From a virus (taxonomy: Duplodnaviria; Heunggongvirae; Uroviricota; Caudoviricetes), in IMG/VR virus record IMGVR_UViG_3300010998_001290: 64,000 nucleotides of DNA, one strand, 5' to 3'. This document shows, in pieces, positions 5,787 to 58,389 of this stretch. The notes beneath the pieces are model-generated. The model made no database searches and was not told where the DNA came from. It saw only the letters and a program-made list of their open reading frames with translations. Numbering within the stretch: the first letter of the stretch is position 1; every line of letters starts with the position of its first letter. Position numbers and translations under genes: made by a program.

Positions 5787-5836
5787 TGTGTACGAAAGAC
5801 AATAGTTTTTCTTTTTCCTTCTGCTTAATCATACTA
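5787..5836 (+). promoter_or_regulatory. promoter cassette: TGTGTACGAAAGACAATAGTTT upstream box, 21 nt, CATACTAATAGT
   Basis: Motif shared with four other sites. Follows the terminator at 5746-5780. Confidence 0.6.
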
Positions 5837-5867
5837 ATAGTGACACACTTAAGGAAGGGGGATAAAA

Positions 5868-6527
5868 GTGAAAATTGAAGTAAAGGAGTACCTCAGGTCA
5901 AGGTCAGAAAGCTATGAATACGCTGTGAGGCACGCCAGCAGGCTTAATCTGAACATTGCATTGGTCTTAAGTGCAGTTACAGGTGAATTTTACACACAGC
6001 ACGCTTCGTACATAGACTTGATACCGACAGAAGACATCGTTATATGTCAGTTCACCGAACACGAAGAGGCTTCCGAGGATGAAACACTTCCCGGAAAACT
6101 GCTCCTGAAAGCAGAAGGACTCATAGATACAGATGAGGTTGAGAAGAACCAGAAGAAGGGAAAGCTTATATATATGTATGAGTTTGAGCTTTATGGTTCG
6201 GGACGAATGACAGAAGCACAAACGAGTGGACTTGAAACGGTTGTAAGGTTTACCGGTCCTATCACACAGGTACAGCTTGATAACGCTTACAAAATCGCAA
6301 AAGATTATATGACTGCTCGCAAAACAAACGAAGCTGCTAAGCGTCTCATCTTCGATATTGAGGTAGTCAATCGACCGGGAAACGTCATAAAGCCGGATGA
6401 GGAGCGAGACTATTGCACTTGTCCCAATTGCGGTCATCAGCTTACAGGCAGCGAATATAGTCTGTTCGGTGAACACAACGGCAAAAACTTCTGTGAAAAC
6501 TGTGGGCAGAAGCTTGTTTGGACATAA
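5868..6527 (+). CDS. hypothetical protein with C-terminal CxxC..CxxC zinc ribbon
   Basis: GTG start after a GGAAGGGGG RBS. 'CTCPNCGHQ...CENCGQK' motif. Confidence 0.6.
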   Translation: MKIEVKEYLRSRSESYEYAVRHASRLNLNIALVLSAVTGEFYTQHASYIDLIPTEDIVICQFTEHEEASEDETLPGKLLLKAEGLIDTDEVEKNQKKGKLIYMYEFELYGSGRMTEAQTSGLETVVRFTGPITQVQLDNAYKIAKDYMTARKTNEAAKRLIFDIEVVNRPGNVIKPDEERDYCTCPNCGHQLTGSEYSLFGEHNGKNFCENCGQKLVWT

Positions 6528-6577
6528 GATTATACACATCCTTTCACTTAAGAACGAGCGTTTTCCTTCTGAACAAT

Positions 6578-6584
6578 CATACTA
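6578..6584 (+). promoter_or_regulatory. CATACTA -10-like promoter element
   Basis: 'caATCATACTAaatat' between genes. Confidence 0.45.
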
Positions 6585-6614
6585 AATATGACGGTTCTGA
6601 AGGAGGTGAGAAAG

Positions 6615-6989
6615 ATGCACGATTTATGTCACGAACTGGATCTGATATGCAAACACATCCCTTATATAAAGGGAGAAAACGAGAAGCATGAGAAAGCTAT
6701 AGTATTTAAGGTAGGAAAGATGATCGGCAAGGTCGAATTCTTGGAATCCGACTATGTCGAAGAAGCGTATGACAGACTTAAGGTGTCAATAATACACCCC
6801 GAAGTCGGGACTATTGACCATATTGAAATCGAATTCAGGTATATTCTTGACAGCGAATGTTACCTGAAAATTGATGAATTATCGGCTGACTGGCATACCA
6901 GTAGGAAGATTTGCAGAGAGTTATCGGAAGACGACTACAAGCTTATCGCCGAGGTTGCCTTGTCATATCTGAAGGAATTTGACTATTGA
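6615..6989 (+). CDS. hypothetical protein
   Basis: GAAGGAGG RBS 7 nt upstream. The track start at 6588 lies inside the promoter element. Confidence 0.6.
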   Translation: MHDLCHELDLICKHIPYIKGENEKHEKAIVFKVGKMIGKVEFLESDYVEEAYDRLKVSIIHPEVGTIDHIEIEFRYILDSECYLKIDELSADWHTSRKICRELSEDDYKLIAEVALSYLKEFDY

Positions 6990-7004
6990 TAATCAGGAGG
7001 AATA

Positions 7005-8753
7005 ATGATGATTAAGGAACTGTTAAAGAAGTATTCGTACGATGATGTATGCGCATCTATAATAAGGTATGTGTACCGAAATATGGAATGTGCGCCTAAT
7101 GCAAGCTCTGACTTTATGGCGGAACTCAAGAAGGGCAAGGATGAGATCGTAGAGTACTTCGAGGAGGAAAAGGTAGACCAGAGCATCCAGAATGTTCTGT
7201 CTATGTTTGAAGAGGTCGCCAGCGAGAGAAGCAGGGGTGTCGTATACACACCTTTCAAGGTTTCCAAGCTCATGTTTGATAAGATAGAGGACTATAATAC
7301 CGGCATCAAGTTTATGGATCCCTCCTGCGGCAGCGGCGCAATACTCGTTAATCTGGTGGATTATATCCATAACAAGTTTATGATTTCGCCTATCGACATC
7401 ATCAACAACAGCATTTACGGCATGGACAATGACTATTTCAGCACTAAGCATTGCAAGTTTCTTCTTGAACTGCTTTGCCTCAAGCTCGGATATCACGCTG
7501 ATGGGCTCAAGATGCACATAGTCAATAACAACAGTATGCTCGTTGATTGGGATACCCTCGGCGTAAGAAAGTTTGACTACATCTTCGGCAATCCGCCTTA
7601 TATCGCTTTAAGGGATATGGATAAGGAAGAGCGCGAGCAGTATGAGAAGCAGTATGAAGTCGCTAAGGGAACATACAATATGGCGCATCTGTTCCTTGAA
7701 AAGGCTATAAAATATGTTAAGCCTAACGGCACTATATCATTCCTTGTCATCAATAATCTTTTCACACACATCTCATCGAAACCGGTAAGAGAACTCATAA
7801 TGCGCACAGGCTATCTTCACGAGGTTATTGAGTTCAATAAGATAAGGTTGTTTGAGAATGCCGAGGTGCTTACCACGCTTATCACATTAAAGGCTGCGTC
7901 GCATACCAAATTCGGCTATGCGAGACCTGAAGCTCTTAATAAGATAGTTCTTGTACAGCTTCCGCTGTCGGAACTTAAGGCTGAAGAATGGGTGTTTGCG
8001 AACGCAAAACAGAAGGAATACCTTGAGCATATCAGGTCTTTTGATACTAAGCTTAAGCCCTATATGAGCGGTTGTATAGCAACTCTTGCCGATAAGGTGT
8101 TCATTCTTGACGATGACGGAAAGACAAGAAGCAACCCCAAGAGACAGAGAGCCATAAAAATCGAGGATGGTATAATCAAGGAAATGTATCGTCCTCGCAA
8201 TATGGAAGGTGAAAAGGCTAAGAAGCTGAAGGTACTGTTTCCGTATGACGAAGACTTTAACACGCTGAGTCTCGATGATATTAAAGAAAGGTTCCCTAAG
8301 GCTTATCAGTATCTTAAAAACAACGAGGAAAAGCTGAAGCAGAGAAGCTGGCAGGATCAGTGGTACGCGTTCGGCAGAAGACAGGGGCTTGCAGTGGAGC
8401 ATAAGGCTGTTCTATTCGGCTGCTATTCCAGAAAGCCGAGATTTATCGTTCCTGATGACGATACGGCACTTCTTCTTAGCGGCGCGTACATAAGCAGCAA
8501 CATACCGGTGAAGCCTGATGTGCTTGCGGTTATCCTGAATTCCGATGTAATGGCGTGGTATATTAAGAAGGTATCGTTCCCCATTTACGGAGACTATTAC
8601 TACTACGGCAAGAAGGTCGTGGGCGACTTCTCGATACCTCCGCTTACCGAGGAAGAGGAAAAGGCGCTGCTTTCTATGACGAAGAGCGAGGTTAACGAAT
8701 TCCTTATCAAGAAGTACGATATAGAGGGTATCGAACTCGAAGAAACGGCATAA
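7005..8753 (+). CDS. N6-adenine DNA methyltransferase (gamma-class, Eco57I/TaqI-like), orphan
   Basis: Motif I '[13 protein letters not shown]' and motif IV 'IFGNPPY'. AGGAGG RBS. 582 aa with a C-terminal target-recognition-like region and no nuclease domain. Confidence 0.85.
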
Positions 8754-8763
8754 GGAGGCTTTT

Positions 8764-9207
8764 ATGAGTACGGTATATATATACAGTGACGGCGCATGTT
8801 CGGGCAACCCCGGTCCCGGAGGATACGGGGTTCTGCTCCGGCAGAAAGACAAGGAACTTGAGCTTTCAGGCGGCGAACCGGAGACAACCAATAACAGGAT
8901 GGAGCTTATGGGCGTTATTACGGGGCTTGAAGCTCTCAAAAAGCCCTGCAAGGTAATCGTCCAGACTGACTCTAAGTATGTTGTTGACGGCATAATGAAG
9001 GGCTGGGCTAAGTCTTGGAAGAAGAATGGCTGGGTTAAAGGCGATAAGAAGCCTGCGCTCAACGCAGATCTATGGGACAGACTCCTAAACCTGCTTGAAA
9101 AACACGAGGTAGAGTTTAACTGGATCAAAGGTCATGCAGGGCATCCTGAGAACGAAAGATGTGACAAACTGGCTGTAGCGGCACGCAAGAAATATGTACA
9201 CAAGTAA
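8764..9207 (+). CDS. rnhA: ribonuclease HI
   Basis: '[14 protein letters not shown]', 'TNNRMEL', 'QTDSKYV', 'WKKNGW', '[14 protein letters not shown]' are the canonical RNase H catalytic motifs. AAGGAGG RBS. Confidence 0.9.
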
Positions 9208-9222
9208 GAGGAGGAAATACAT

Positions 9223-9942
9223 ATGAATGTAAAGCAGCTTATTGACAAATGTGACGTCACCCTTCTTACCGACCAGTATCTCAATATGAACCCTGTTCCT
9301 ATTGCGGAGAGGGAAGATGAGGCGAGAGCGTTCTTAGATTTCCTGACAAGGCTTAAGGAAATAAAACCGTCTGTATCTGAGAACTACATACTTGTGTATA
9401 AGGGTTATGACGGAGATAAAGAGTTCCTGAACGCCGCTATGTTCGAGGCATCCGACATTCGAGAAAAAGTACATGATGTGTACGAATTCGATAAGCTTTT
9501 ATTCCCTGAAGACCTTTCGGATGAAGGATTTGAGGGCTTAAGAGAAATATGTAACGACTTTTTACATAATAACTATGCCATTGACTTCATCGAATGGGAT
9601 AGAGTTCTCGGCTTCAATACTGACGAAGACAACATAAAGGAGTTCGGAGCTGAAGCTGTTGCAGTAGCTATCCTCACCGAAATGACCTTTGTTTCGTTCT
9701 ACGAAGAGGATATAAAAGCCAAAAGACAGGAGATCGATGATGCTTTATCGGAGGTCGAAGAGCTTTGTGCGTCATCTTTAGAAGAAAGTAAGCTCAAAGA
9801 ACATGATCTTTTCGAGTTTAAGGACAATCGGACAGAGGAAGAAAAAGAAGTTGACAGGAAAAAGGCGCTTAAGGAGTATGTTCTTACGACGATAAGTATG
9901 TATAAGGCGTTGAAGCCTGTACATAAAAGGCTTAACGGCTGA
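9223..9942 (+). CDS. hypothetical acidic protein
   Basis: GAGGAGG RBS. Continuous ORF with codon usage like its neighbours. Confidence 0.6.
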   Translation: MNVKQLIDKCDVTLLTDQYLNMNPVPIAEREDEARAFLDFLTRLKEIKPSVSENYILVYKGYDGDKEFLNAAMFEASDIREKVHDVYEFDKLLFPEDLSDEGFEGLREICNDFLHNNYAIDFIEWDRVLGFNTDEDNIKEFGAEAVAVAILTEMTFVSFYEEDIKAKRQEIDDALSEVEELCASSLEESKLKEHDLFEFKDNRTEEEKEVDRKKALKEYVLTTISMYKALKPVHKRLNG

Positions 9943-9993
9943 TATATCAGATAGCAGCCCAATGTCATTAAGTTAAGAAAAGGGGGATAAAAT

Positions 9994-10257
9994 ATGAAAA
10001 TATCAGAAGCAAAAGAGATAATAACAAGCCTTAAAAAATTATCGGTAAATTTAGAGAAATTACGCGCTTTATCAACAGGCAATATGGGGTCAATGGTAGG
10101 CGAAGTTAAGGCTCGTGAATGGTGCAAGAACATAGAAAGTATGGCAGATATATATAATACTCCACTCCCGCTTGTTTTTCAAGAAGCCAAAAATGTCGTT
10201 GATAATGAAATCAATAGACTGAATGATTTGATTGATAACACGGACATAAATCCTTAG
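9994..10257 (+). CDS. hypothetical small protein, flanked by 18-bp inverted repeats
   Basis: AAGGGGGA RBS. The stop codon lies inside the right inverted repeat. Confidence 0.55.
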   Translation: MKISEAKEIITSLKKLSVNLEKLRALSTGNMGSMVGEVKAREWCKNIESMADIYNTPLPLVFQEAKNVVDNEINRLNDLIDNTDINP

Positions 10258-11951: not shown

Positions 11952-12003
11952 TTAACATTAAGCCTTCCGTTTGGAGGGCTTTTTGTTTTTGCAACTACTC
12001 TGT

Positions 12004-12010
12004 CATACTA
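12004..12010 (+). promoter_or_regulatory. extended -10-like TGtCATACTA promoter element followed by a ~165-nt leader
   Basis: 'gcaactactcTGtCATACTAtat' after a terminator. Confidence 0.55.
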
Positions 12011-12176: not shown

Positions 12177-13634
12177 ATGGTTAATTCAAGAAAGTCGGTT
12201 TTTACGAAAGCCGCAGCGATAGCAATGTCTATCACAATGCTTACATCAGCGTTATCGTTTGGTGTTAACGCATCAGCAGCAGACCTCGAAAGTACAGCAA
12301 CAGTTGCATCATCCGGACCTGTAGTATCGTGTCCGATTGAAGATGGTGTTCTTTACATAACTATCGAGGGCGGTCAGTGGAAACACTGGATTGAGTACGC
12401 CTCCGGCGAAGCAACATCGGGATACGGCACGCTTGATATCAAGACAATCAACGGAGTTGAAACATTCATTTATTCGGATACTGACGGAAATGTAATTCTT
12501 CAGTGGGATGAAGAGGCTCCCTCTAATTCCGGCGGCAGAGGCGATATCACTGATGGCGAAGAAGAGGAGAACGAAGAGGAGACCGGTGCGGTTGACCTCA
12601 AAATCGCGGAAAAGCTTCTGAATATGCTTTATGCAGAACAGAGTGCGTTGAGCGAGGAAGCGGGCTACTTCAACGATATGTACAAGGAACTGAAGTCGTC
12701 AATATCTGAAGCTACAACGATAAAATCAGTTCTGAGAAACACGATGTCCAACGATGAACTGGCTGACATCACAGAGTATATCAAAGCCGCTAATAAGCAG
12801 AAGACATATGCTTATAATCAGTATAAGCGTTTCAATTCTGCTGCTACAAGATGCGGGAATGAGATAAGACTTATCGAAAAACGTCTCGGCAAGAGTAATT
12901 CCGTAGTAGATGTATCCGGTGGAGAAGGCACTTCGTCTAAGAGCGCAGGCACAGGCGGTCTGTCCTTCTGGAAGAGCAGTGCTTATCAGAACGCGGCATC
13001 TAACGGCTATGGTGATGCAACAGATAAGATCGTTACATTCTCCGATGACGAAAAACTGTTCCTTAAGGCGATAAACGAGTATAAGCAGAGTTATTCCACT
13101 AAGGTTTATGCTGTAATTACAGTAAGAAGCAAGACGGAGACTTACTACCTTAAGTATTTCCCCAAGGATAAGGCTGTGTACAGAGTAACTGTAAAGGGCA
13201 CGAAGCTCAGTAATACGCCTGAATACAGTTCGGCGGATATAGCGAAGGGACTGCTCAAGAATTATAAGTTCGCTTATGATAAGCTGAAACAGATCCTTAA
13301 CTATGATTACGCGGTATATACGGCTGCTACCTCTTTCTATGAAGAAAAGGGCAAGCTGTTAAACGAGAAGTATAACGCCATAAAGGACTATAAGACGGAA
13401 CACAAAAAGGATTTTTCTGTAGCTGAACGCGAAACTGTTGATGCAATCATCAACACGTTGGGAGGCAGCGGCACACATCATTATAGGGTTATGGCTGTAA
13501 AGACCGGTAAGATATACCAATCTGGTCCCATAAGCCTTTACAAGTATGCTGCGAAGGAAGTTGAAAAGACAGCGAAATCTATGGGTGTAACGCTTACGTC
13601 TACCGCGACCTCTGGCGATACAGCTAACGGATAA
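12177..13634 (+). CDS. secreted protein, paralogue family member A
   Basis: Sec signal peptide 'AAAIAMSITMLTSALSFGVNASA'. Paralogous to 14328..15920. AAAGGAGG RBS. Confidence 0.75.
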   Translation: MVNSRKSVFTKAAAIAMSITMLTSALSFGVNASAADLESTATVASSGPVVSCPIEDGVLYITIEGGQWKHWIEYASGEATSGYGTLDIKTINGVETFIYSDTDGNVILQWDEEAPSNSGGRGDITDGEEEENEEETGAVDLKIAEKLLNMLYAEQSALSEEAGYFNDMYKELKSSISEATTIKSVLRNTMSNDELADITEYIKAANKQKTYAYNQYKRFNSAATRCGNEIRLIEKRLGKSNSVVDVSGGEGTSSKSAGTGGLSFWKSSAYQNAASNGYGDATDKIVTFSDDEKLFLKAINEYKQSYSTKVYAVITVRSKTETYYLKYFPKDKAVYRVTVKGTKLSNTPEYSSADIAKGLLKNYKFAYDKLKQILNYDYAVYTAATSFYEEKGKLLNEKYNAIKDYKTEHKKDFSVAERETVDAIINTLGGSGTHHYRVMAVKTGKIYQSGPISLYKYAAKEVEKTAKSMGVTLTSTATSGDTANG

Positions 13635-13660
13635 GGCTTTTATCACCGACATATTACAAG

Positions 13661-13690
13661 ACCCCGTTCTATACGGGGTTTTGTTTTTGC
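13661..13690 (+). terminator. intrinsic terminator
   Basis: CCCCG-ttctata-CGGGG plus TTTTGTTTTT. Confidence 0.7.
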
Positions 13691-13701
13691 AACTGCTCTG
13701 T

Positions 13702-13708
13702 CATACTA
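13702..13708 (+). promoter_or_regulatory. extended -10-like TGtCATACTA promoter element
   Basis: 'gcaactgctcTGtCATACTAat' after the terminator at 13661-13690. Confidence 0.55.
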
Positions 13709-13762
13709 ATCTCACAGGCTTTAAAGGCTTGGAATTATTTTATTATTAAGGAGGAGATAACA

Positions 13763-14209
13763 ATGGTTAATCTCAAGAAAACGGTAGCATCGCTTTTAGC
13801 GGTAACGGCAATCATTTCGTCCATGTCAGTAGGGGCAAGTGCGGCGACGGTTTATTCGTCCGGCGGCACAAGTAGCTCGTCAAGCAGCTCATCTAACTCG
13901 TCCTCCAGCAGCGGTACAAACAGCGGTTCAGGGTCAAGCTCAGGCAGCTCATGGAACGGCGGAGTATCACGCAGTTCAGGACTGAATATTGACGCCAAAA
14001 GTATGACCGGTAGCGGTACATTTAAATCACCTTATAAGGCAGTGAAGGGAACTCTTACTGTAAGAGCACCCGGCAAACTCACAAAGACCACAAAGACTAC
14101 CGTAAACGGCAGGAAGGTCACTGTTCTGACCTACAAAGGTGCTAACAGCAACGATACCGTTTATGTACAGAAGGGTTCAATACTCTACAAGTACGTACTT
14201 ACTAAGTAA
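13763..14209 (+). CDS. secreted Ser/Gly-rich protein, signal peptide related to the flanking paralogues
   Basis: Signal peptide 'LLAVTAIISSMSVGASAATVYSSG' matches 14328's 'LTSALSVGASAATIYSSG'. AAGGAGGAG RBS. Confidence 0.7.
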   Translation: MVNLKKTVASLLAVTAIISSMSVGASAATVYSSGGTSSSSSSSSNSSSSSGTNSGSGSSSGSSWNGGVSRSSGLNIDAKSMTGSGTFKSPYKAVKGTLTVRAPGKLTKTTKTTVNGRKVTVLTYKGANSNDTVYVQKGSILYKYVLTK

Positions 14210-14327: not shown

Positions 14328-15920
14328 ATGGTTACTTCAAAGAAAAACGCGATGATAAGAGCGGCGGCTATAGCTATGTCTTTGACGATGCTTACATCTG
14401 CTTTATCTGTCGGAGCAAGCGCGGCAACTATCTATTCAAGTGGTTCTGCTTCAAGTTCAAACAACGAATCAAGAGACAATGATATTGGACCTGCAATCAT
14501 TGCTTTCCCGTTAGCGGAAGGTGTTCTCCATATCACTACGGGGAATTCGACAGGTTCTTGGACGCAGCATTGGATAGAAGCTTATCCGGAAGGGGCTATG
14601 TCGGCAGACGAGCTTTATGTCCTCACACAAGTGGAAGGCAATAAGGGTATTGATTATGCGCTTACCGATCCTTCGGGCAATATCGTTCAGCAATGGACGG
14701 AAGAGTATTCCTATCCTACAGGGGGCGTACTCGAAGCAGAGGCGATAGAACTTACTGAAGAGGAAGCCGAAAGGATTACAAGTTCCTTAAGGAAAGACTA
14801 TGCAGCGGCCGGAGAGATCGATAACGAGCTCGGTTATCAGCTTCTCGATGCTCTTTACGAGGAACAGACGGTATTGACAAAAGCTGTAAACTTCTATAAG
14901 GAGTTATCAACCTCGCGCAGGGAATCGGCAAAGGGCGCGGCTAATGTCAAGGTAAAGCTTTCAGCGGCGCTTTCCAGTGCTCAGAAGAACGACCTTACAG
15001 ATTACATCAACAATTGTAATAAGGAAGCGTCATACTTCACGAGACGGGCAACCACGCTTAATAGTATGCTTTCTCAGACAAAAACGGAGATAAAGAGACT
15101 TACAAAGGCTCTGGGCAACATCTCTAAGAAATATGGCTCCGGTGACGAAAAAGAGTATTTTATTCCGGTGTATGGCGGCTTAAGTGAGAATATAGACACT
15201 TCTACAACAAGAATGAGCAACGATGGCTACTTCGCATTCTGGAACAGCTATCATATAGGTAATGCTCTCGGAGTTGACACAAGCTCAGGAATGTATCTCG
15301 TTATAGGCAAGCCGATAGTAGGTATTTCGGGGGATATGGCACTTCTCTTAGCACTTTGCAACAATCCCGGCAAGCCTTATGACCTTACGAACTCAAAAGG
15401 TGAGACTGTTTATGTTGCTTACATAGGCGGCAAGGTCTATAATGTGGACGCAAAGGGCAAAAAGCTCAGCAAGAAGGAAGCATTTGACATCAGCGATACC
15501 GTTAAGCATATCGTAGGTCGTTATTCCTTAAGCAGCAGCGAGGCAGCTCTTAACGCTTCACTTGAGGAAAAGCTGGTCTATGAGACGGCGGCGGACTTCT
15601 ATAAGACAAAATCCGAAGAAATCAAGGAAATTGTATCTCTTCTGAAGAAGTATAAGAACGATAATTCCAAGACATTATCTTCTACCGACAAATCTAAGCT
15701 TACAGCTTATATTAACGCTTATAACAGCTCAGCAACCTACTTCACGAGAAGAAAGAACTCGTACACAAGTATGTCGAAGACGGCGAATACTGAGGCAAAG
15801 AGACTTTCTAAGCTTCTTGAGGTAACAGGCGACAGTTCCGGCAAGACAGGCGACTTCGGCTTCTGGAAGACGGCTCTTACAGAGGGAAGATTCGTTCCGA
15901 CATATATGTACGCTTCGTAA
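14328..15920 (+). CDS. secreted protein, paralogue family member B, with an internal duplication
   Basis: Signal peptide almost identical to 12177's. Internal repeats 'YINNCNKEASYFTRR' and 'YINAYNSSATYFTRR'. GAAGGAGGAG RBS. Confidence 0.75.
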   Translation: MVTSKKNAMIRAAAIAMSLTMLTSALSVGASAATIYSSGSASSSNNESRDNDIGPAIIAFPLAEGVLHITTGNSTGSWTQHWIEAYPEGAMSADELYVLTQVEGNKGIDYALTDPSGNIVQQWTEEYSYPTGGVLEAEAIELTEEEAERITSSLRKDYAAAGEIDNELGYQLLDALYEEQTVLTKAVNFYKELSTSRRESAKGAANVKVKLSAALSSAQKNDLTDYINNCNKEASYFTRRATTLNSMLSQTKTEIKRLTKALGNISKKYGSGDEKEYFIPVYGGLSENIDTSTTRMSNDGYFAFWNSYHIGNALGVDTSSGMYLVIGKPIVGISGDMALLLALCNNPGKPYDLTNSKGETVYVAYIGGKVYNVDAKGKKLSKKEAFDISDTVKHIVGRYSLSSSEAALNASLEEKLVYETAADFYKTKSEEIKEIVSLLKKYKNDNSKTLSSTDKSKLTAYINAYNSSATYFTRRKNSYTSMSKTANTEAKRLSKLLEVTGDSSGKTGDFGFWKTALTEGRFVPTYMYAS

Positions 15921-15977: not shown

Positions 15978-16058
15978 TGTGTACGAAAGACATAAGTTTC
16001 CATTTTTACCTCTGAACTATCATACTATTATTAGAATCATTATCTGAGACGAACGGAG
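15978..16058 (+). promoter_or_regulatory. full tripartite cassette: TGTGTACGAAAGACATAAGTTT, 21 nt, CATACTA, 20 nt, GACGAACGGAG
   Basis: All three boxes present, after the terminator at 15946-15976. Confidence 0.6.
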
Positions 16059-16126: not shown

Positions 16127-16786
16127 ATGAACTACGAAATGCCTATACGCTTTTTTGACGCACAGGGCGGAAGAGTATTCTCGCTTATCGGAGAGATAAA
16201 CGAATCTGTGTACGAAAACAGGGCGAAAATCATCGACAAGAGGCTGTACGACATTCCGACTGTAAACGAAGGGGCTACAGCTAAACTCTCAAATGAACTT
16301 TCTGCAAAGGATAGGAGCTGGATAACAGAGCTTTTCACAGTAAAGTTCATTTATTGGGCAAAGAAGGGTATCCTTGGTGTAGCAGGAGCCGCTGCTGAGA
16401 TAGAAAATTTCAGCGTTCCTTCAAGCGCAGTCATCTTCCAGAACGGATACGACCGCGATTATGCGTGCGAGTCTTATCCTAAACTTCCGTTCTTTCAGGT
16501 TATGATCCAGAGGAACAGGGAGCTTTCGGTCGAAGATATACGTCGGATTGCCAACAGAACCGCCGATGAAAGCGAGGACTACGTCAACATCGTCGTGCGT
16601 GATACATATCTCTACGATTGTATCGAAAGCGAACTCGAAATTCCTGCTATCATCGCCGGAACAGAAGGCGAAAGCTTTGAAACTATCAGCATCAATGCTC
16701 TTAACAGCTTTGATAAGGTCAAGACCGTAGAAAAGATGGTCTATGACTACATCTATCGTGAGCAGTTAAGACGCGAGCTTAAGTAA
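16127..16786 (+). CDS. hypothetical protein
   Basis: AAAGGAAAG RBS region. Preceded by a full tripartite promoter cassette. Confidence 0.6.
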   Translation: MNYEMPIRFFDAQGGRVFSLIGEINESVYENRAKIIDKRLYDIPTVNEGATAKLSNELSAKDRSWITELFTVKFIYWAKKGILGVAGAAAEIENFSVPSSAVIFQNGYDRDYACESYPKLPFFQVMIQRNRELSVEDIRRIANRTADESEDYVNIVVRDTYLYDCIESELEIPAIIAGTEGESFETISINALNSFDKVKTVEKMVYDYIYREQLRRELK

Positions 16787-16796
16787 TGGGGGTTAT

Positions 16797-17456: not shown

Positions 17457-17461
17457 GACGA

Positions 17462-17707
17462 ATGCTTTCGGAAAGACTTCATGAATTGAGAAAGATTAAA
17501 AACCTTACACAGAATGAAGCTGCTGAAGCGATGGGCATTGTATCAAGAACATATGGCGGTTACGAGCGCGGAGAAAGGGAGCCTGATATCAAAACAATGA
17601 TAAAAATGGCTGATTATTTCAACTGCACCCTTGACTACCTTGTAGGAAGATCATTTAAGCCCAAATATGTTGTAAAGGTAAAGGTCAGAAAGTCAAAAAA
17701 GAGGTGA
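17462..17707 (+). CDS. XRE-family helix-turn-helix transcriptional regulator
   Basis: 'LRKIKNLTQNEAAEAMGIVSRTYGGYERGEREPDIKTMIKMADYFNCTLDYLVGR' is the canonical Cro/C1-type HTH. Confidence 0.85.
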   Translation: MLSERLHELRKIKNLTQNEAAEAMGIVSRTYGGYERGEREPDIKTMIKMADYFNCTLDYLVGRSFKPKYVVKVKVRKSKKR

Positions 17708-17719
17708 AAATCAGAAAGA

Positions 17720-23685: not shown

Positions 23686-23892
23686 ATGATGAATAGACCT
23701 ATAAAGGTTCGTGTATTTAAGGCATCCACCTGTTCAGAGCTTGAAAACAAGCTCAACGAGTTTCTCTCGTCAAGCGAAACCTATGAAATCAACAGCATAC
23801 AGTATGCTACCGCGAGCGGCTCTGCGTCTTCCGTAGAGCCTCCTACGGTATATACAGCGATGGTTGTGTACGAAGTCAGTGTATACAGATAA
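23686..23892 (+). CDS. hypothetical small protein
   Basis: AAAGGAGAAAA RBS. Confidence 0.5.
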   Translation: MMNRPIKVRVFKASTCSELENKLNEFLSSSETYEINSIQYATASGSASSVEPPTVYTAMVVYEVSVYR

Positions 23893-25156: not shown

Positions 25157-25750
25157 GTGTATAAATCGTGGGTACAGACACCTATAGGATATGAATTATA
25201 TGCTCAAGGACAGTACGAACGTGAATTTCTGGCATTTATGTATGGAGGTGTGTACGACGGCTGGTTTTTCTATATCCCATACCATTCCGATAAAGAGATA
25301 CTCCTTAAGGCGGGTAGCCTTAAAGAAGCTAAACGGGAAGTAGAACAGCGGATGCAGAGAAATATCCTGAATGAAAGAAACAGATACGAACATTATATAA
25401 ACGAGACATCAAGCCGTTACGGGTGGCTTGAATACAACGACGACTCCTATGAATTAAAGGTTAAGTCCCCGGAGAAGGAAATGGTAACAGCCGCAAGGGT
25501 CGAAAAGGACGAATGGTACGGCTATAAGTACAGCACATTGTTCGAACCTTGCTTTACCCGTCATGTTCTGCTTTTACACACGGATGTTCAGAGATTGGCA
25601 ATTGACAGTATAAAGGAATACGGCGAGCGTCAAATAGATATATGCGAAATGCTTATCCTTATGCTCGAAGAAGAAGCTCCGGTAAAAAATATTGTGTACG
25701 AACAGCAAAAACACTGCCAAATAGGAAATAAAAAGTCATACTATGTATAA
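25157..25750 (+). CDS. hypothetical protein; start uncertain
   Basis: The GTG at 25157 sits only 1-2 nt after GGTGAGGG. No better in-frame start was found. Follows a CATACTA promoter. Confidence 0.45.
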   Translation: MYKSWVQTPIGYELYAQGQYEREFLAFMYGGVYDGWFFYIPYHSDKEILLKAGSLKEAKREVEQRMQRNILNERNRYEHYINETSSRYGWLEYNDDSYELKVKSPEKEMVTAARVEKDEWYGYKYSTLFEPCFTRHVLLLHTDVQRLAIDSIKEYGERQIDICEMLILMLEEEAPVKNIVYEQQKHCQIGNKKSYYV

Positions 25751-28770: not shown

Positions 28771-30462
28771 ATGATGAAATTACCGGATAATTACTATCCA
28801 ATACCGGAAGAGCTGGCTTTTAAAATGGCTCAGAAGGCATTTAAGAACTACAAACCCGGCGATACTGCTTATGTCCTTGAGCCGTCCGCCGGAACAGGAG
28901 ACATGATTAAGGGTATTGAGAAGTTCTCAGACAGGCAGCATCCATATTGTTGCCGATATGACATTGACTGCATCGAGATCAACCCTGAGCTTGCCGCTAT
29001 ACTTAAGGAAAGATACTGTGAGTATGGCGAAGAACGGGTGAGAGTTGTGTATGACGATTTTCTTACATTTAAGACAGATAAGGTCTATACACACATACTG
29101 ATGAACCCGCCATTTGATGAAGGAGAAAAACATCTGCTGAAAGCTCTTGACATCTTGAAGAACGGCGGGGTCGTTGTGTGTCTCTTGAATGCTGAAACAT
29201 TAAGAAATCCGTACACAAACACAAGAAAAGAGTTGACAGATCGTCTTCTTGAGCTCGGCGCTGATATCGAGTATATCGAGCACGCCTTTTCTGAAGCGGA
29301 GCGTCCGACTGATGTTGAGGTAGCAATGATTACAGTAACGATAGAGTCAAAGCCTTATACAAGCTTCTTCTTTGATGATATGAAGAACTATAGGGATGAA
29401 GACGAGCCTATAGACGAGAATGTTACGGACATAATAGAAGGCTCCGGAACTATCAGAGCAGCAATTGTTTCCTACCGCAACGAGTTAATTCTCGGAAAGC
29501 GCTTCATAAGAGAGTATTATGGACTTCGGAAGTACATACCTGTAAATTTCTGTTCTTCCGATGCAGAAGAGTGGGAGAAAGAAATGTCAAGTGCGCCTAT
29601 CATCGATATCAAAATTGATGGCAATGAGGCGATAAGAAGTACTTATCCTGAAATGCTCAACGCCTTTATAAAACTCCTTAGAAATAAGTATTGGAAAGAA
29701 TTCTTCAAGAACAAGGAGCTTACTGACAAGTTTACCTCAAATCTCATTAAGTCCTTCTCATCTCAGGTGGAACGGCTCGAAAATTACGATTTTAATGAGC
29801 ATAACATAGCCGAGATACGCAATCAAATGATCAATCAACTTACCAAAGGTGTTGAAGATGCGGTCATAGGGATATTCGACAAGCTCTCAGCCCAGCATTC
29901 GTGGTTTCCGGAATGCAGCAAGAATATTCATTATTACAATGGATGGGCATCCAATAAAGCACACAAGATAAACGATAAGGTAGTGCTGCCTACGGAGAGC
30001 AGATACGGCGGGTCGAGTTGGATCTATACAGATAGCTGGCGCAATGAAGCCTTTGATGTGTACGAAGCGTACGGAATGTTGTCAAATATCGAAAAGGTTT
30101 GCTCTTATTTCTGCGTAGAAGGAAAATCTTACCTTGACTTAAGTACACAGCTTTCGATTGCATCTAAGAGAATGATCACGAAGAACATTGAGTGCCGCTA
30201 CTTTGATATCACAATCTATAAGAAAGGAACTGTACATATCAAGTTCACCTCAAAAGAGGCTCTTGAAGCACTCAATATTTACGGCTCAAAGATGAAAGGT
30301 TGGCTTCCTCCGAGTTATGGAAAGAAGCACTACAAGGATATGAATGAAGATGAAAGAATAGTAATTGACGCTTTTCAGGGAGAAGAAGCCTATGAAAAGG
30401 AGCTGGCTGACCCTAAGGGCGTTATCGGAGCAGGAAACGGTGCAATAGCATTGTTATCATAA
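28771..30462 (+). CDS. N6-adenine (amino-) DNA methyltransferase, second orphan MTase, with a C-terminal extension of unknown function
   Basis: Motif I 'YVLEPSAGTGDM' and motif IV 'ILMNPPFDEGEKH'. AAAGGAA RBS. Confidence 0.75.
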   Translation: MMKLPDNYYPIPEELAFKMAQKAFKNYKPGDTAYVLEPSAGTGDMIKGIEKFSDRQHPYCCRYDIDCIEINPELAAILKERYCEYGEERVRVVYDDFLTFKTDKVYTHILMNPPFDEGEKHLLKALDILKNGGVVVCLLNAETLRNPYTNTRKELTDRLLELGADIEYIEHAFSEAERPTDVEVAMITVTIESKPYTSFFFDDMKNYRDEDEPIDENVTDIIEGSGTIRAAIVSYRNELILGKRFIREYYGLRKYIPVNFCSSDAEEWEKEMSSAPIIDIKIDGNEAIRSTYPEMLNAFIKLLRNKYWKEFFKNKELTDKFTSNLIKSFSSQVERLENYDFNEHNIAEIRNQMINQLTKGVEDAVIGIFDKLSAQHSWFPECSKNIHYYNGWASNKAHKINDKVVLPTESRYGGSSWIYTDSWRNEAFDVYEAYGMLSNIEKVCSYFCVEGKSYLDLSTQLSIASKRMITKNIECRYFDITIYKKGTVHIKFTSKEALEALNIYGSKMKGWLPPSYGKKHYKDMNEDERIVIDAFQGEEAYEKELADPKGVIGAGNGAIALLS

Positions 30463-31123: not shown

Positions 31124-31173
31124 TGTGTACGAAAAACAATAGTTTGTGATTTTCCTCACCAAAAATCATACTA
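31124..31173 (+). promoter_or_regulatory. TGTGTACGAAAAACAATAGTTT upstream box, 21 nt, CATACTA, upstream of the flotillin gene
   Basis: After the terminator at 31081-31108. Confidence 0.6.
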
Positions 31174-33591: not shown

Positions 33592-33641
33592 CTGTGTACG
33601 AAAGACATAAGTTTCGAGTTTTCCGCTTAGGCAATCATACT
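33592..33641 (+). promoter_or_regulatory. TGTGTACGAAAGACATAAGTTT upstream box, 21 nt, CATACTA
   Basis: After the terminator at 33544-33580. Confidence 0.6.
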
Positions 33642-33794: not shown

Positions 33795-34229
33795 ATGAAA
33801 AAGAGACAAAAAGGCGGCTCAATGCCAGAACATTTGAAAATCATCTCAACCAAAAAGAAGAATACAGAGAATGATTACGGTGTTAAGTATAAATGGAATA
33901 AAGAAGTCTATGTGATCATAGACAAGGATACCGGAGCTGTGTACGACGACGCAGATGGTGAAGGCTATAAATCATATGAAGCGGCGGAATCTGCTTTGAT
34001 ATTCTTGGAACAGCCGAGAGTAAAGAAAAAGGAAAGGCATCATCTTAAGAAAGGTGTATCAAAGTGGTGCGAGACGCATCCGACAATCGTAGACAAGATA
34101 TATCGTGCTCTTTTTGACGCAGCTCAGAACGGCAAGGAACTGTCTGATGAAGATATACTTAAGCTTATACCTACAGAGGCGCAAGAAGAGATGTCTTTTT
34201 CCGTACATGAGCTTATGAGTAACTGGTAA
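33795..34229 (+). CDS. hypothetical basic protein
   Basis: GAAGAGGTG RBS before ATG 33795. Confidence 0.5.
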   Translation: MKKRQKGGSMPEHLKIISTKKKNTENDYGVKYKWNKEVYVIIDKDTGAVYDDADGEGYKSYEAAESALIFLEQPRVKKKERHHLKKGVSKWCETHPTIVDKIYRALFDAAQNGKELSDEDILKLIPTEAQEEMSFSVHELMSNW

Positions 34230-34460: not shown

Positions 34461-35130
34461 TGAAATAGCTCGAACGAATGCAAATGGGGCTTTTATAGTT
34501 CCTGAAGGCATTGAGATCATAACAGGGGATGTTACCTATCCCTCTGACTTAAGGAAGCTTATACTCCCTGAAAGCGTAAAATCCGTTGAAAGGCTTGCTT
34601 TTCAAGGCTGTACCACACTTGAGTCTGTTGAAGGCGGGAACATCAGCAAGATAGGGGCTTATTCCTTCTCCGGCTGTACAAGTCTTAGCAGGTTTGATTT
34701 CGTACACAACTGTGAAATAGGAAACGGAGCGTTCTCGGAATGTGCCTTTACTAATCTGTCATTCGAGAATTGCAGGCTTCAGAGCAAGGCTTTTGAAAGC
34801 TGCAAAAGACTTAAGCGCGTCGTAATGGACGAAAGCACGACTGCCGAATACGATACATTCGATGAATGTACCGCGATAGAAAGCTTTATTTATTCAGGTA
34901 AAGAGTATGAAGCTTTTTGTATAAAAGGGACATGCCTTATAATAAAAGAGCGGTATATCGTTGACGGCATAGATGTTATCGAGGCGATGCACCCCGATGA
35001 TTTAAGCAATCCCACAACACGGATATTTGTCTGCTCAAAAGACGGTGTGTGGGAAAGCGACAACAATATTCGAGGCTGTATTCGTAAGCTTGAAAGGAAA
35101 ATAGGCATAAGCAGCCTCTACAGCGAGTAA
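34426..35130 (+). CDS. BspA-type LRR protein, seventh, dispersed paralogue
   Basis: AAGGAGGGAG RBS. 'LAFQGCTTLESV...AYSFSGCTSLSRF...GAFSECAFTNLSF' repeats. Confidence 0.65.
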   Translation: MKTTDPKEKMLNEIARTNANGAFIVPEGIEIITGDVTYPSDLRKLILPESVKSVERLAFQGCTTLESVEGGNISKIGAYSFSGCTSLSRFDFVHNCEIGNGAFSECAFTNLSFENCRLQSKAFESCKRLKRVVMDESTTAEYDTFDECTAIESFIYSGKEYEAFCIKGTCLIIKERYIVDGIDVIEAMHPDDLSNPTTRIFVCSKDGVWESDNNIRGCIRKLERKIGISSLYSE

Positions 35131-41207: not shown

Positions 41208-41286
41208 GGAACGAAAAACTTGTACACATCCGAGCTCAAAGCGGGTGTGTACAAAATTCTTAAGTGAATGAGAAAGGAACAGAACA

Positions 41287-45669: not shown

Positions 45670-45748
45670 CATCTGAAAGGAAGCAATTATTGTACAATCG
45701 GGCGGCATTTTGTCGTCCGATTTCGTACACAAACATAGGAGGATTATT

Positions 45749-47602: not shown

Positions 47603-47632
47603 AGGACGCTTCGGCGTCCTTTTTGTTTTTCT
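47603..47632 (+). terminator. intrinsic terminator (GGACGC-ttcg-GCGTCC family, repeated at 48191 and 43675)
   Basis: Perfect hairpin plus TTTTTGTTTTT. Confidence 0.75.
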
Positions 47633-47643
47633 TTCAGGTCTTT

Positions 47644-47678
47644 CATACTATATATGCGGTTCATTATGACGAATGGAG
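47644..47678 (+). promoter_or_regulatory. CATACTA plus GACGAATGGAG cassette
   Basis: After the terminator at 47603-47632. Confidence 0.6.
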
Positions 47679-49667: not shown

Positions 49668-50288
49668 ATGTCAAAAAGATGGACAAAGGCTGAGCTTGAT
49701 GCTATGAGCAACCGCGAGTTTCTTCTTGCATTCCTTGAGGAAGCACAGAAAGAGCGCACTTGGGGTTCACCTGTGGGCAAAAAGCTCGGAGAGGTTATCG
49801 AAGAGCTTACTAAGGACGAAATAAGTAACGGCGGCTTCGTTGCTTACAAGAGTTATGAAAATGACAGCGAATATGCCGGTATCAGTATCGACTACAAAGC
49901 GGCGGATGGTAATGTTATTCCTATAGCTACCGCTGAAAACACGCCTGAGGGTACACTTCAGGTAAGGATATATGAGGACGCTTATTGCGATGAGCCGACG
50001 CATATAGGTACTATAAACATGACCGACCCGGCTGACGTGGTCGTACACATCCCCGATGATGCTACCGCAATTCAGGTGACATATCCTGAATGTGGCGCGT
50101 GGGACACACGCTTGGAAAAAGCGATTCCGGGCGGTAAGCCTATAGAGTACAGAAAGGTAAATCCGGCGTGTCCGTTGGCTAAGTACGGTGACTGGTATAA
50201 TGCTGCTGATGGCACTTCTATACTTACAGAGGATATTGAAAAACTTGCATGTAAGATAGTTGTGCTTAAGTCTGAGGAAAACAAGTGA
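49668..50288 (+). CDS. hypothetical protein
   Basis: CAGGAGG RBS. Confidence 0.6.
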   Translation: MSKRWTKAELDAMSNREFLLAFLEEAQKERTWGSPVGKKLGEVIEELTKDEISNGGFVAYKSYENDSEYAGISIDYKAADGNVIPIATAENTPEGTLQVRIYEDAYCDEPTHIGTINMTDPADVVVHIPDDATAIQVTYPECGAWDTRLEKAIPGGKPIEYRKVNPACPLAKYGDWYNAADGTSILTEDIEKLACKIVVLKSEENK

Positions 50289-56655: not shown

Positions 56656-57069
56656 ATGAGTAACATTAGTCTCGAAGAGAAGAAAAGGGAAGCTGTAAGC
56701 AGGATGAAATCTATGAAGATGTTCCCTGAGGTTATAAAGCAGTTTTCCGAAGATGGGCTCGTAATGAAGACCGAAGGCTACTTAGGCGGCTGCTACTATC
56801 TTAACGATGAGCAGAAGAAGAGGGTCTCGGACTTCGAGAACAAGCATAATGCCCTTGTGTACCACGTCATTATGGCGCATACAACTGACGGGATAATGGA
56901 AAGCTACGTCTATGTAAGTGACAACAAGAAAGATTGGGCATCTGACCGTGATGATATTAACAACCGGCGGTTGTTTACTTATACTTATGTGTACGACGAC
57001 CCTATCTGCTCTGAATTTGGCACTATCGGATACAAGCTTTCACCCGGCGCGGGGCTTCAGAGATTGTAA
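56656..57069 (+). CDS. hypothetical protein
   Basis: AAAGGAAAAG RBS. Confidence 0.55.
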   Translation: MSNISLEEKKREAVSRMKSMKMFPEVIKQFSEDGLVMKTEGYLGGCYYLNDEQKKRVSDFENKHNALVYHVIMAHTTDGIMESYVYVSDNKKDWASDRDDINNRRLFTYTYVYDDPICSEFGTIGYKLSPGAGLQRL

Positions 57070-57110
57070 ATTACCCAACAATAACTATATAATGAAAAAG
57101 GAGTAAAAAT

Positions 57111-57800
57111 ATGATTTACAGAGAGACTATCGTAGTGGATAAGAATACCGCAGATTTCATCAACAACGCTCTTAACATCGAGCCTGATTGCGAGAGCAAC
57201 TGCTTTGGCGAAGACGAGAAGATCTCGTACACAGCTACTTTCAGCAACGGATTTCAGGCTGATATCGAGTGCATCGGCGTACAGTACGACGAGGGCGGCT
57301 GCAATACCGCTTGGACACAGGCTGTTCTTTTCAATCCGGATGGCGGTGAGGTCAATTGTTCAGCTCCCGACAGCTCTTTCTTTGATGAGTGGTGGCTTAC
57401 GGATAGTGATGGGAATGAGTACTATATCAATGTCGTAACCGACAACGATAACGACGGAGATACCGACGACGGCGATGATGATGCTGAGTTCATCACGAAG
57501 AACCGTAACCGTGCCGAAAGAAGACGCGCAAGACGGAACAGTATAGCTCGCAGGTCGAGAGAAACTGTTGAAAAGTGTCGTGTCGGCAACCCTGAGATAC
57601 TTGAGGATCTCGGAGAACGCAGAGTAGGACAGCTGGCGAAGGGTTCTTGGATCCACAGCAGCGTAGCTTATGATTGGGACTTCTTCGGCGTAGGTCGTCT
57701 TCTCAGATATAAGCCTTCTACTATGCGGAGACTTGACAAGGCTCGTTATGCTATGTCTGACTATTCTGCATATGCCGAGGATGACAAGGAGGCAGTATAA
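57111..57800 (+). CDS. hypothetical protein with an acidic 'DNDNDGDTDDGDDD' stretch followed by an Arg-rich stretch
   Basis: AAAGGAG RBS. Confidence 0.55.
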   Translation: MIYRETIVVDKNTADFINNALNIEPDCESNCFGEDEKISYTATFSNGFQADIECIGVQYDEGGCNTAWTQAVLFNPDGGEVNCSAPDSSFFDEWWLTDSDGNEYYINVVTDNDNDGDTDDGDDDAEFITKNRNRAERRRARRNSIARRSRETVEKCRVGNPEILEDLGERRVGQLAKGSWIHSSVAYDWDFFGVGRLLRYKPSTMRRLDKARYAMSDYSAYAEDDKEAV

Positions 57801-58294
57801 TGGGAATGACTCTTGCACAGCTTAAGAGAGATGCCAATAGTGGCTCTCTCGTACTTGAGATGATCGAGCGCTACGGCGATACCGGCGAAGCAATTCCTGA
57901 AAGGCTCAGAGGAAAGAGAAAGGTACTTAAGGCTAACAGCGTTGGGCTTATTCTCTTGAATGCTGATGGCAAGGAAAGCACGTTGGATATTGACAGCGCC
58001 AAGCTCATAGACTACACTGATGACACGCTTGTCGTATACAATCCCGGCTTAAGAGAACCTACCGATGAAGAAAAGAGGGTTCTTGATGGGATACACAGCA
58101 TCTATCAGAAGTACGCTGATACATACAACGGCGGTTATTGGCAGGGAAAGGACTTCGGAATGAAGAGCTCTTGCCCTTGGATGCTTGGATACGACAAGAT
58201 AAGAGGTAAGCGGTACGAATCTCACAGCGGAATGGTAAGAGACAATTCCGTAAGAGGCGAACAGTGCCTTAAGTATAAGGTGTATCGCGCTTAA
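57800..58294 (+). CDS. hypothetical protein
   Basis: TAATG coupling. Confidence 0.55.
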   Translation: MGMTLAQLKRDANSGSLVLEMIERYGDTGEAIPERLRGKRKVLKANSVGLILLNADGKESTLDIDSAKLIDYTDDTLVVYNPGLREPTDEEKRVLDGIHSIYQKYADTYNGGYWQGKDFGMKSSCPWMLGYDKIRGKRYESHSGMVRDNSVRGEQCLKYKVYRA

Positions 58295-58305
58295 CGAACA
58301 ATTAA

Positions 58306-58337
58306 ACATCAAGAAGAGAGTGTCCGCATGGCACTCT
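58306..58337 (+). terminator. intrinsic terminator
   Basis: AGAGTG-tccgcatgg-CACTCT plus TTTTCTTTTTT. Confidence 0.65.
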
Positions 58338-58338
58338 T

Positions 58339-58389
58339 TTCTTTTTTCTGTGTACGAGAAGTAAAATCGTATTCAATTTCCGTCCGTGC
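58339..58389 (+). promoter_or_regulatory. TGTGTACGAGAAGTAAAATCGT (diverged upstream box), 22 nt, CATACTA
   Basis: After the terminator at 58306-58337. Confidence 0.5.

Follow-up and report, generated by a model that had tools for sequence, protein, structure and literature searches.

A 22-nt box recurs at a rigid distance ahead of a subset of the promoters in a 64,000-nt stretch of viral DNA (IMG/VR record IMGVR_UViG_3300010998_001290; hereafter "the window," meaning the whole stretch that was analysed). With roughly even confidence, we regard this box as a composite cis-regulatory site of ~22-30 bp that would define a second, conditional or delayed class of promoters, while the copies of its left nine bases that lie inside genes would act as auxiliary sites. 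Activation is the more likely direction of its effect than repression, because the box promoters lack the -35-like TTG that most other promoters in the window carry. The window corresponds to positions ~20,380-84,379 of the Joint Genome Institute (JGI) metagenome contig Ga0139362_1000266 (301,622 bp; sample 3300011008). The element appears to be an uncultivated mobile replicon of ~301 kb from ruminant-gut (rumen) Clostridia, for which the only hints of a host are genome bins of Clostridia. The motif itself is new, although its kind is familiar; what is less ordinary is that its left nine bases are also written, again and again, into nearby coding sequence.

Box promoters and ordinary promoters

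With up to three mismatches allowed, the pattern TGTGTACGAAAGACAWAAGTTT has four matches in the window, at 5787 (one mismatch), 15978 (none), 31124 (two) and 33593 (none), against an average of 0.02 in dinucleotide shuffles. Every one of these boxes starts exactly 43 nt 5' of a CATACTA, the -10-like element of the local promoters, with 21 nt between the end of the box and that element (Table 1). The preliminary description of this DNA had rested on just such a rigid distance, and on this point the four near-identical boxes bear it out. Two more full boxes at the same distance lie on what we call the extended contig stretch, which is the window plus about 9 kb beyond its end (8.8 kb added); sites on the same contig past the window end are given in window-equivalent coordinates. 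Of the five copies first described, those at 5787, 15978 and 31124 were placed exactly and two were displaced, since 33592 is 33593 and 58339 is 58349. The last of these, previously called diverged, does carry the 9-mer, but TGTGTACGAG is all that it has in common with the box and its distance is 44 nt. Another copy of the 9-mer alone, at 25693, belongs to a promoter that lacks the T-rich upstream element, and its status as a promoter copy is doubtful for that reason. The five promoters originally grouped are all present, but the set is larger and comprises at least eight once those at 25693, 64280 and 69104 are added.

Pairwise comparison of the six full copies gives a mean identity of 87% within the box; the figure falls to 35% over the 22 nt upstream, to 55% over the 21-nt spacer and to 38% over the DNA that follows CATACTA. 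This difference indicates that the box is a discrete element selected for both its sequence and its position, and no part of a longer duplicated segment. A sigma-70-like promoter further upstream (TTGAAA-N17 into the box) was rejected as a conserved feature, being found in only three of the six boxes and in two different registers.

The promoters themselves follow a recognizable grammar. CATACTA occurs 30 times on the plus strand and five times on the minus strand, where 7.3 occurrences would be expected on both strands together. Alignment of the 30 plus-strand sites, with the C of CATACTA as position 0, gives the consensus TTTTTGTTTTTCC (-24..-12), N7, C/A-W-n-T, CATACTA, W-T. Most of these sites directly follow a GC-rich hairpin, which suggests that the T-run is both the tail of a terminator and an upstream promoter element. 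At about 17 promoters (e.g., 11981-12010, 18791-18820 and 47621-47650), terminator and promoter are fused into a single module in which the hairpin is followed by TTTTTGTTTTT, at once the terminator tail and the -35-like element of the next unit, with a G fixed 19 nt before CATACTA.

Box and non-box promoters depart from one another upstream of this shared core. The box spans -43..-22, and its final three T's run into the shared T-rich element, whereas non-box promoters have the terminator stem at these positions. It had been proposed that the box sits where a -35 element should be; it lies instead immediately upstream of the upstream promoter element common to both groups. TTG at -21..-19 is found in 17 of 25 non-box promoters and in none of the eight box promoters, while exact TTTCC at -16..-12 is found in six of eight box promoters and in only three of 25 non-box promoters, the others having T-rich variants such as TTTCT or TTTGC in its place. 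We infer that this TTG is a -35 element. The use of CATAATA in place of CATACTA by three relatives (L102, L106 and L107) suggests that the -10 hexamer is CATACT/CATAAT; the TTG could also pair with TACTAW at 17-bp spacing, and in either case the transcription start is a predicted one.

The two groups also differ in their leaders. The sequence GAYGAnnGGAG, most often GACGAATGGAG, lies at ~+26..+36 after CATACTA, just 5' of the start codon, and accompanies 12 of 25 non-box promoters but only one of eight box promoters. It follows the CATACTA sites at 1625, 16021, 19073, 20732, 28697, 32961, 35158, 37901, 43716, 47644, 48233, 54521 and 59209. Only its GGAG is explained, as a Shine-Dalgarno sequence; the GACGA part is also kept in the distant relatives L100, L102, L103, L106 and L107. 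When Rfam models were run across the window, box and leader included, no family reached its gathering score.

We propose that the majority of promoters form a class A, in which the promoter would be fused to the preceding terminator (hairpin-TTTTTGTTTTTCC-N11-CATACTA) and would use the -35-like TTG at -21..-19. In a class B, a cassette of the form (A-rich)-TGTGTACGA-RRR-ACAWWAGTTT would be interposed between the terminator T-run and TTTTCC, and these promoters would be without the -35-like TTG because the cassette shifts it ~30 bp away. Indeed, a box promoter looks like an ordinary promoter with a cassette inserted after the terminator T-run. Within the cassette, two parts may be distinguished: RE1, the asymmetric 9-mer TGTGTACGA at -43..-35, and RE2, a short dyad RRAC-WWWW-GTTT at -33..-22, both counted from the C of CATACTA. 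RE2 would be centred near -41 from the transcription start only if that start lies ~13-14 nt after the C of CATACTA. A sequence-specific DNA-binding protein, encoded either elsewhere on the 301-kb element or by the host, would occupy the cassette and recruit the same RNA polymerase that reads CATACTA, and RE1 copies inside neighbouring genes would assist it as auxiliary sites, through cooperative binding or looping.

Class B genes would consequently form a delayed or conditional regulon. Its members would be the methylase/RNase H operon headed by box A (5868-10257, encoding a zinc-ribbon protein, an N6-adenine methylase, RNase H and a DUF6557 protein), the 16127 operon, the flotillin-like gene, the genes at 33771-35130, the NinB gene that precedes RecJ and, past the window, a TnpB-like gene. 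The last encodes 482 amino acids (L105, positions 12424-13872) and lies on the same contig as the window, directly 3' of the box promoter at 64280. Three 219-amino-acid proteins are encoded downstream of boxes and are not paralogues.

The nine-base word in coding sequence

The left nine bases of the box, TGTGTACGA, occur as 19 exact copies in the window (13 on the plus and six on the minus strand), where 0.25 are expected from shuffles and 0.67 from an order-3 Markov model. No other 9-mer in the window is as over-represented, and the word remains at the top when promoter regions are masked (7 + 6 copies vs 0.66 expected). Its 13 copies outside promoters are divided between the strands (seven plus, six minus) in a window that is transcribed almost wholly from the plus strand, and 12 of them lie inside genes, as do 12 of 14 on the extended stretch. 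There are in addition 30 copies with one mismatch, spread over 27 possible variants; nine of them are TGTGTATGA and three are TGTGTACAA, both transitions at the CpG. The preliminary description had singled out a TGTGTAC half recurring in palindromes in two regions, 41220-41254 and 45690-45732. Both regions exist, but what recurs is not just a half-site; it is the 9-mer.

How the word is accommodated within genes is informative. Every sense-oriented copy in a gene is read as nnT-GTG-TAC-GAn, and V-Y-D/E tripeptides number 22 in the window against 10 expected. GTG-TAC encodes nine of these 22, where codon usage predicts ~1.4, and in all nine cases the codon before it ends in T. Codon choice has been bent to fit the word, and we therefore conclude that the 9-mer is selected at the level of DNA, within the limits of coding. 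As such, it is a clear example, in a mobile element, of DNA-level selection overriding codon preference.

The word is also distributed unevenly. On the extended stretch, seven of the 20 exact copies stand 43-44 nt 5' of CATACTA in the same orientation, where ~0.01 would be expected by chance. For 10 of the 14 non-promoter copies the nearest box promoter is no more than 1.5 kb away (p ~0.004 under random placement), and for five of the 14 it is within 500 bp (p ~0.013), in a test that was devised post hoc, after the data had been seen, and that partly reflects a shared gap at ~35-56 kb. Only two copies lie between 34.7 and 56.9 kb, and the word is not evenly dispersed along the replicon. Clustering near box promoters counts against a signal spread evenly along the DNA and favours auxiliary sites read by the same factor. 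It likewise makes plausible the earlier suggestion that one protein recognises all copies, although the non-promoter copies have a flank signature of their own (GnTGTGTACGAnnnC, with G at -2 in eight of 13 and C at +12 in 11 of 13) and no such protein was identified. Outside the boxes, their second half (AARACAWWAGTTT) shows no enrichment (16 matches vs 19 expected at up to two mismatches). No CATACTA-like element closer than two mismatches is found 30-60 nt after the non-promoter 9-mers, and those that do occur lie at scattered positions.

Two further observations concern repeated words in the window. A second dispersed word, (T)GAGGTCAA, is present on both strands, at 738, 1857, 12599(-), 19312(-), 19409, 24000, 32193, 36465(-), 48685(-), 55302 and 57348, with all of these copies inside genes; the 9-mer TGAGGTCAA of this word has eight copies against 0.58 expected when promoters are masked. 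Two palindromes are over-represented across the window and not avoided, with 86 CTTAAG against 43 expected and 15 GGATCC against 4.3.

Table 1. Positions of promoter elements, boxes and copies of the nine-base word; coordinates are those of the window or their equivalents past its end.
Feature	Position	Strand	Context
CATACTA, -10-like element	5830..5836	+	Box-paired ones: 5830, 16021, 25737, 31167, 33636, 58393
TTTCC, part of shared T-rich upstream element	5814..5818	+	-16..-12 from C of CATACTA
Full box A, TGTGTACGAAAGACAATAGTTT	5787..5808	+	43 nt before CATACTA at 5830
Full box B, TGTGTACGAAAGACATAAGTTT	15978..15999	+	43 nt before CATACTA at 16021; heads operon 16127-18737
Full box C, TGTGTACGAAAAACAATAGTTT	31124..31145	+	43 nt before CATACTA at 31167; heads SPFH/flotillin-like gene 31221-32807
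Full box D, TGTGTACGAAAGACATAAGTTT	33593..33614	+	43 nt before CATACTA at 33636; heads genes 33771-35130
Full box, TGTGTACGAGAGACAATAGTTT	64280 (window-equivalent)		Same contig past window; 43 nt before CATACTA
Full box, TGTGTACAAGGAACAATAGTTT	69104 (window-equivalent)		Same contig past window; 43 nt before CATACTA
9-mer-only copy (TGTGTACGAG is all it shares with the box)	58349..58357	+	44 nt before CATACTA at 58393; heads NinB-like gene 58598-59137
9-mer-only copy	25693..25701	+	44 nt before CATACTA at 25737; in frame within 3' end of gene 25238-25750
TGTGTACGA copy	9477..9485	+	In gene, read nnT-GTG-TAC-GAn
TGTGTACGA copy	15759..15767	-	In gene 14328-15920; 219 bp upstream of box B; unchanged in L010, L011, L012
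TGTGTACGA copy	16207..16215	+	In gene 16127-16786; 229 bp downstream of box B
TGTGTACGA copy	23865..23873	+	In gene 23686-23892; absent in L010, present in L108
TGTGTACGA copy	25249..25257	+	In gene 25238-25750; 444 bp upstream of copy at 25693
TGTGTACGA copy	30057..30065	+	In DUF4942 methylase gene
TGTGTACGA copy	33938..33946	+	In gene 33771-34229; 345 bp downstream of box D
TGTGTACGA copy	34700..34708	-	In LRR_5 gene
TGTGTACGA copy, exact	45723..45731	-	Intergenic, between hairpin and ribosome-binding site of next gene
TGTGTACGA copy	50041..50049	-	In gene 49668-50288
TGTGTACGA copy	56988..56996	+	In gene 56656-57069
TGTGTACGA copy	57225..57233	-	In gene 57111-57800
TGTGTACGA copy	63295..63303	-	Sense orientation in minus-strand transglutaminase-like gene, same V-Y-E frame
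Inverted repeat TTGTACACA-N17-TGTGTACAA (two one-mismatch 9-mers)	41220..41254	.	Intergenic; no T-run after it

Relatives and gene content of the element

Comparison with relatives separates an old grammar from a box of narrower distribution. In L010 and L011 (about 91% nucleotide identity), box B is identical, box A is changed at four of 22 positions with its spacing still 43, and the copy at 25693 has been lost through synonymous changes. Boxes C and D are kept in L108 (96-99% nucleotide identity), D with one change, and the box at 64280 is kept in L101 (about 91%). The distance to CATACTA, whose rigidity the preliminary description had stressed, holds across these comparisons: it is 43 nt for A and B in L010 and L011, for C and D in L108 and for the box at 64280 in L101, at nucleotide identities of 91-97%. 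Among more distant relatives, L100 (RecJ 58% identical) has the same promoter grammar and two 9-mers in 21.7 kb, both inside genes. L102 (RecJ 59% identical) has a single TGTGTACGA, which follows a terminator T-run and stands 16 nt before a TTTTTC run and 41 nt before the -10-like CATAATA. L103 (RecJ 48% identical) has no 9-mer, and of the two Clostridia genome bins with CATAATA promoters, L106 has one and L107 none. Throughout this group the grammar of the promoters is old and occurs widely, while the full box is limited to close relatives and strong enrichment of the 9-mer is found only there. L103 carries on its plus strand a repeated word of its own, the ~18-nt GATACTGAGGAACAGACA (about 4-5 copies in 21.7 kb), and an upstream AAATTTAATTTT common to two promoters, so that other lineages may carry different boxes.

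Pattern scans contributed no further relatives. Box plus CATACTA had no match in IMG/VR and one unrelated chance match (L002) in JGI metagenomes; the RE1-promoter pattern had none in GTDB genomes; and a T-tract followed by TCATACTA gave 83 single chance matches in IMG/VR. BLAST of the box module against PLSDB plasmids and phages returned nothing meaningful, and a literature search for the 9-mer, its reverse complement and TCATACTA as words yielded only unrelated microRNA papers. The elements that carry flotillin homologues L003-L009 (IMG/VR) and P0124 at 71% identity (L109, L110) are unrelated and have neither CATACTA promoters nor the 9-mer, and the RecJ homologues P0004, P0007 and P0008 lie in a different context resembling that of integrative and conjugative elements (ICEs). 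The protein at 16127 has no relatives in IMG/VR, and a conserved protein neighbouring RecJ has no homologue in the phage or PLSDB plasmid collections (BLAST). A near-identity search of INPHARED phages with the window gave no match. The distant relatives that were found come from ruminant-gut data and from genome bins named Ruminiclostridium sp. or uncultured Clostridia. Relatives of the contig also turned up in the sequencing runs SRR27755830, SRR33322335 and SRR33675019.

The window has a GC content of 41-44%, and its long open reading frames lie on the plus strand except for 62745-63965. Recognisable genes encode a BspA-type leucine-rich-repeat (LRR) array, an N6-adenine methylase, RNase H, a DUF4942 methylase, a DnaG-type primase without a zinc domain, an ABC transporter, an SPFH/flotillin-like protein, YopX, LPD28, Lar, NinB and RecJ, while the majority of window proteins have no family assigned. 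Searches with the methylase protein found only distant haloarchaeal and cyanophage matches. This element is without relatives in curated phage and plasmid collections, and hardly any of its genes carry an annotation. For ordering such genes into an expression programme, a grammar with two promoter classes would be one of few handles; it also supplies a concrete bait for the regulator and defines at least eight units for which co-regulation is predicted.

Several genes deserve brief mention in their own right. The primase (19667-20659) has a catalytic core, Toprim and DnaB-binding domains but no match to the N-terminal zinc-ribbon domain, which is present in the primases of ICE-like relatives. 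BspA-type LRR proteins form five tandem paralogues at 597-5731, with another copy at 34426-35130. Paralogous pairs are also formed by 12177-13634 and 14328-15920, and by 35236-35817 and 43783-44376; L010 lacks the first of these genes. Leaving out one unrelated element (71%) and near-identical copies from other samples, the flotillin-like protein (31221-32807) has its closest homologues at 59-65% identity; the few with source names are from Oscillospiraceae genome bins, which hints either at the host lineage or at where the gene came from. At a place corresponding to about window position 11159, L010 carries a minus-strand IS605-type OrfB/TnpB gene (7854-8972) that is absent from the window.

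Weighing the readings against known systems

A composite activator site must be set against other ways of explaining the same sequences, and the observations that weigh against it should be stated together. Scanning of ~70 window proteins with Pfam or PHROGs, together with precomputed Pfam calls for the rest, disclosed no DNA-binding, helix-turn-helix or sigma protein. Full promoter boxes have C at +13 and non-promoter copies at +12, and with this difference in flanks the two sets may not be read identically. Box A differs at four of 22 positions in L010 although the surrounding DNA is 95% identical. Orthologous 9-mers are unchanged in six of 10 comparisons, against about 0.5 for random 9-mers, so that individual sites are not visibly more constrained than their mostly coding background. 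The clustering test, as noted, was framed after the fact. All positions relative to the transcription start are deduced, and sequence alone does not separate activation from repression.

This last point bears directly on the possibility that the box is an operator, with a repressor bound to RE1/RE2 at the eight promoters and to the auxiliary 9-mers, looping the DNA and holding the units silent until its removal. Such an arrangement would account for non-promoter copies that flank box promoters at a few hundred bp, such as those at -219/+229 around box B, and for the inverted pair at 41220-41254, which resembles a dyad operator. It would also have precedents by analogy: flanking operators lie a few hundred bp from the promoter in coliphage 186 (CI) and in lac (O2/O3), and dispersed asymmetric operators are used by phage P1 C1, phi105 and mycobacteriophage L5. 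Against this, the box stands upstream of the core promoter without overlapping it, no repressor gene was identified among window proteins, and the missing TTG is expected of promoters that need help and not of strong ones that need silencing. We consider repression unlikely, yet a serious competitor. An alternative-sigma -35 element had been offered as the counterpart of an activator site in the preliminary description, and of that pair the activator half remains reasonable on the strength of the TTG contrast, a lack of this kind being typical of factor-dependent promoters, while the sigma half fares poorly. The family does encode sigma factors of the extracytoplasmic function (ECF) type (L100, L096), and box promoters do lack the TTG of the others. 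Known sigma-70-family holoenzymes, however, need 16-18 nt between -35 and -10, whereas here the gap to CATACTA is 21 nt from the end of the box and 34 nt from the 9-mer; moreover, the two promoter classes do not differ in CATACTA, the T at -1 or TTTCC, and 13 copies of the 9-mer have no -10-like element downstream. Given these gaps and the shared -10, we hold it to be very improbable, and the least probable of the explanations considered.

The dispersed copies invite a different class of explanation, in which TGTGTACGA is a genome-wide signal unrelated to transcription initiation (a Chi-type, uptake or self-recognition, nick or modification, or architectural site) and its promoter copies represent secondary use or a coincidence of cassette duplication. 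In its favour are the 13 non-promoter copies on both strands, a preference for the exact word (19 exact copies vs 30 over 27 variants), the separate flank signature of the non-promoter copies, the turnover of individual sites between close relatives, and a fitting into codons that is, by analogy, reminiscent of uptake sequences. It does not explain why seven of 20 exact copies hold one position before CATACTA or why the rest cluster near box promoters instead of being evenly spread, nor why the word is barely or not at all enriched in distant relatives whose promoters are of the same type (two copies in L100, one each in L102 and L106, none in L103 or L107). Chi sites in particular are G-rich, only 5-8 nt long and strongly skewed between the strands, and we know of none as long as TGTGTACGA; this word is not G-rich, shows no strand skew outside promoters, and has nine specified bases plus flanks. 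We judge such a signal quite improbable. Still less probable, to our minds, is a functionless relic, a promoter cassette or small insertion that was copied to several places and persists by descent. Class B does resemble class A with ~30 bp inserted after the terminator T-run, conservation of the orthologous copies does not exceed that of the background, and in L010 box A has drifted. Yet when paralogous copies are compared, conservation is limited to the box and the promoter elements, with spacer and flanks at 35-55% and the spacing exact, which requires selection on the box and its position; the 9-mer is also found again at a promoter in the far-diverged L102.

Between a composite activator site and a genome-wide signal lies a more speculative proposal that we regard as doubtful, though somewhat less so than a signal unrelated to transcription. 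Here TGTGTACGA(nnnC) would be a self-marking or architectural word of a giant mobile element, read by a dedicated protein at ~1 site per 3-4 kb on either strand and doubling as a promoter-class switch. Were this true, the need for sites would have reshaped codon and even tripeptide usage, and the word would be a phage or plasmid counterpart of chromosome-wide words (uptake sequences, Noc/parS-type sites), coupled to transcription.

Inspection against consensus sequences for Spo0A, CcpA cre, LexA, CRP/FNR, TnrA, sigma-54, DnaA and MuA end sites found none that fits the box; in the case of the DnaA box TTATCCACA (textbook consensus), the reverse complement TCGTACACA matches at six of nine positions and differs at position 2. 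In relatives, a gene for an ECF-like sigma (Sigma70_r2 + r4_2) adjoins one for a DUF4367 protein (L100, 16043-17231; L096, 3923-5183), and in L100 a CATACTA promoter stands immediately 5' of the sigma gene; no such gene lies within the window. It is possible that this sigma is the reader of CATACTA promoters.

Comparison with known systems places the box among several partial likenesses. Uptake sequences (the 9-mer core of the Haemophilus uptake signal sequence, and the Neisseria DNA uptake sequence) resemble TGTGTACGA in that an exact 9-mer is over-represented on both strands, fitted to codons and tripeptides and surrounded by a halo of one-mismatch variants. They are, however, spread across whole host chromosomes with no fixed relation to promoters, whereas a third of the copies here occupy one fixed promoter position and the rest cluster around, and we know of no uptake specificity in Firmicutes. 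With the stoperators of L5 gp71 and the P1 C1 and phi105 sites it has in common an asymmetric site of ~9-15 bp, here in about 20 copies per 73 kb; as with these, the 186 FL/FR sites and lac O2/O3, one subset occupies promoters and the others are dispersed around them, in some cases inside genes a few hundred bp to either side. Stoperators are oriented with transcription and lie mostly between genes. The non-promoter copies here, by contrast, are divided 7:6 between the strands of the window, irrespective of which way transcription runs; 12 of the 14 that the extended stretch holds lie inside genes; and no copy overlaps a core promoter as a true operator would, the promoter copies being at -43..-35. 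Nothing seen, furthermore, marks this element as temperate.

The T4 MotA box offers another parallel, as a 9-bp asymmetric word that marks a temporal class of promoters with an ordinary -10. That box is centred at -30 and replaces the -35 element through sigma appropriation with AsiA; here 34 nt separate the end of the 9-mer from the -10-like element, and the window shows no homologue of MotA or AsiA. There remain the factor-dependent phage promoters in which an activator site abuts a defective -35 element (Mu Mor at Pm, Mu C at the late promoters, lambda cI at PRM), together with class II CRP promoters. The box differs from these in that its most conserved part, RE1, is asymmetric, lies further upstream (~-50) and recurs as the same word many times in genes. 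A class II-type site is centred near -41.5, and the RE2 dyad would be centred near -41 only if the transcription start lies where we have placed it. In other respects the two are alike: the box promoters combine a normal -10-like element with a missing -35-like element (none of the eight has TTG), and they share a conserved site immediately upstream, at a rigid distance, that is common to a subset of transcription units.

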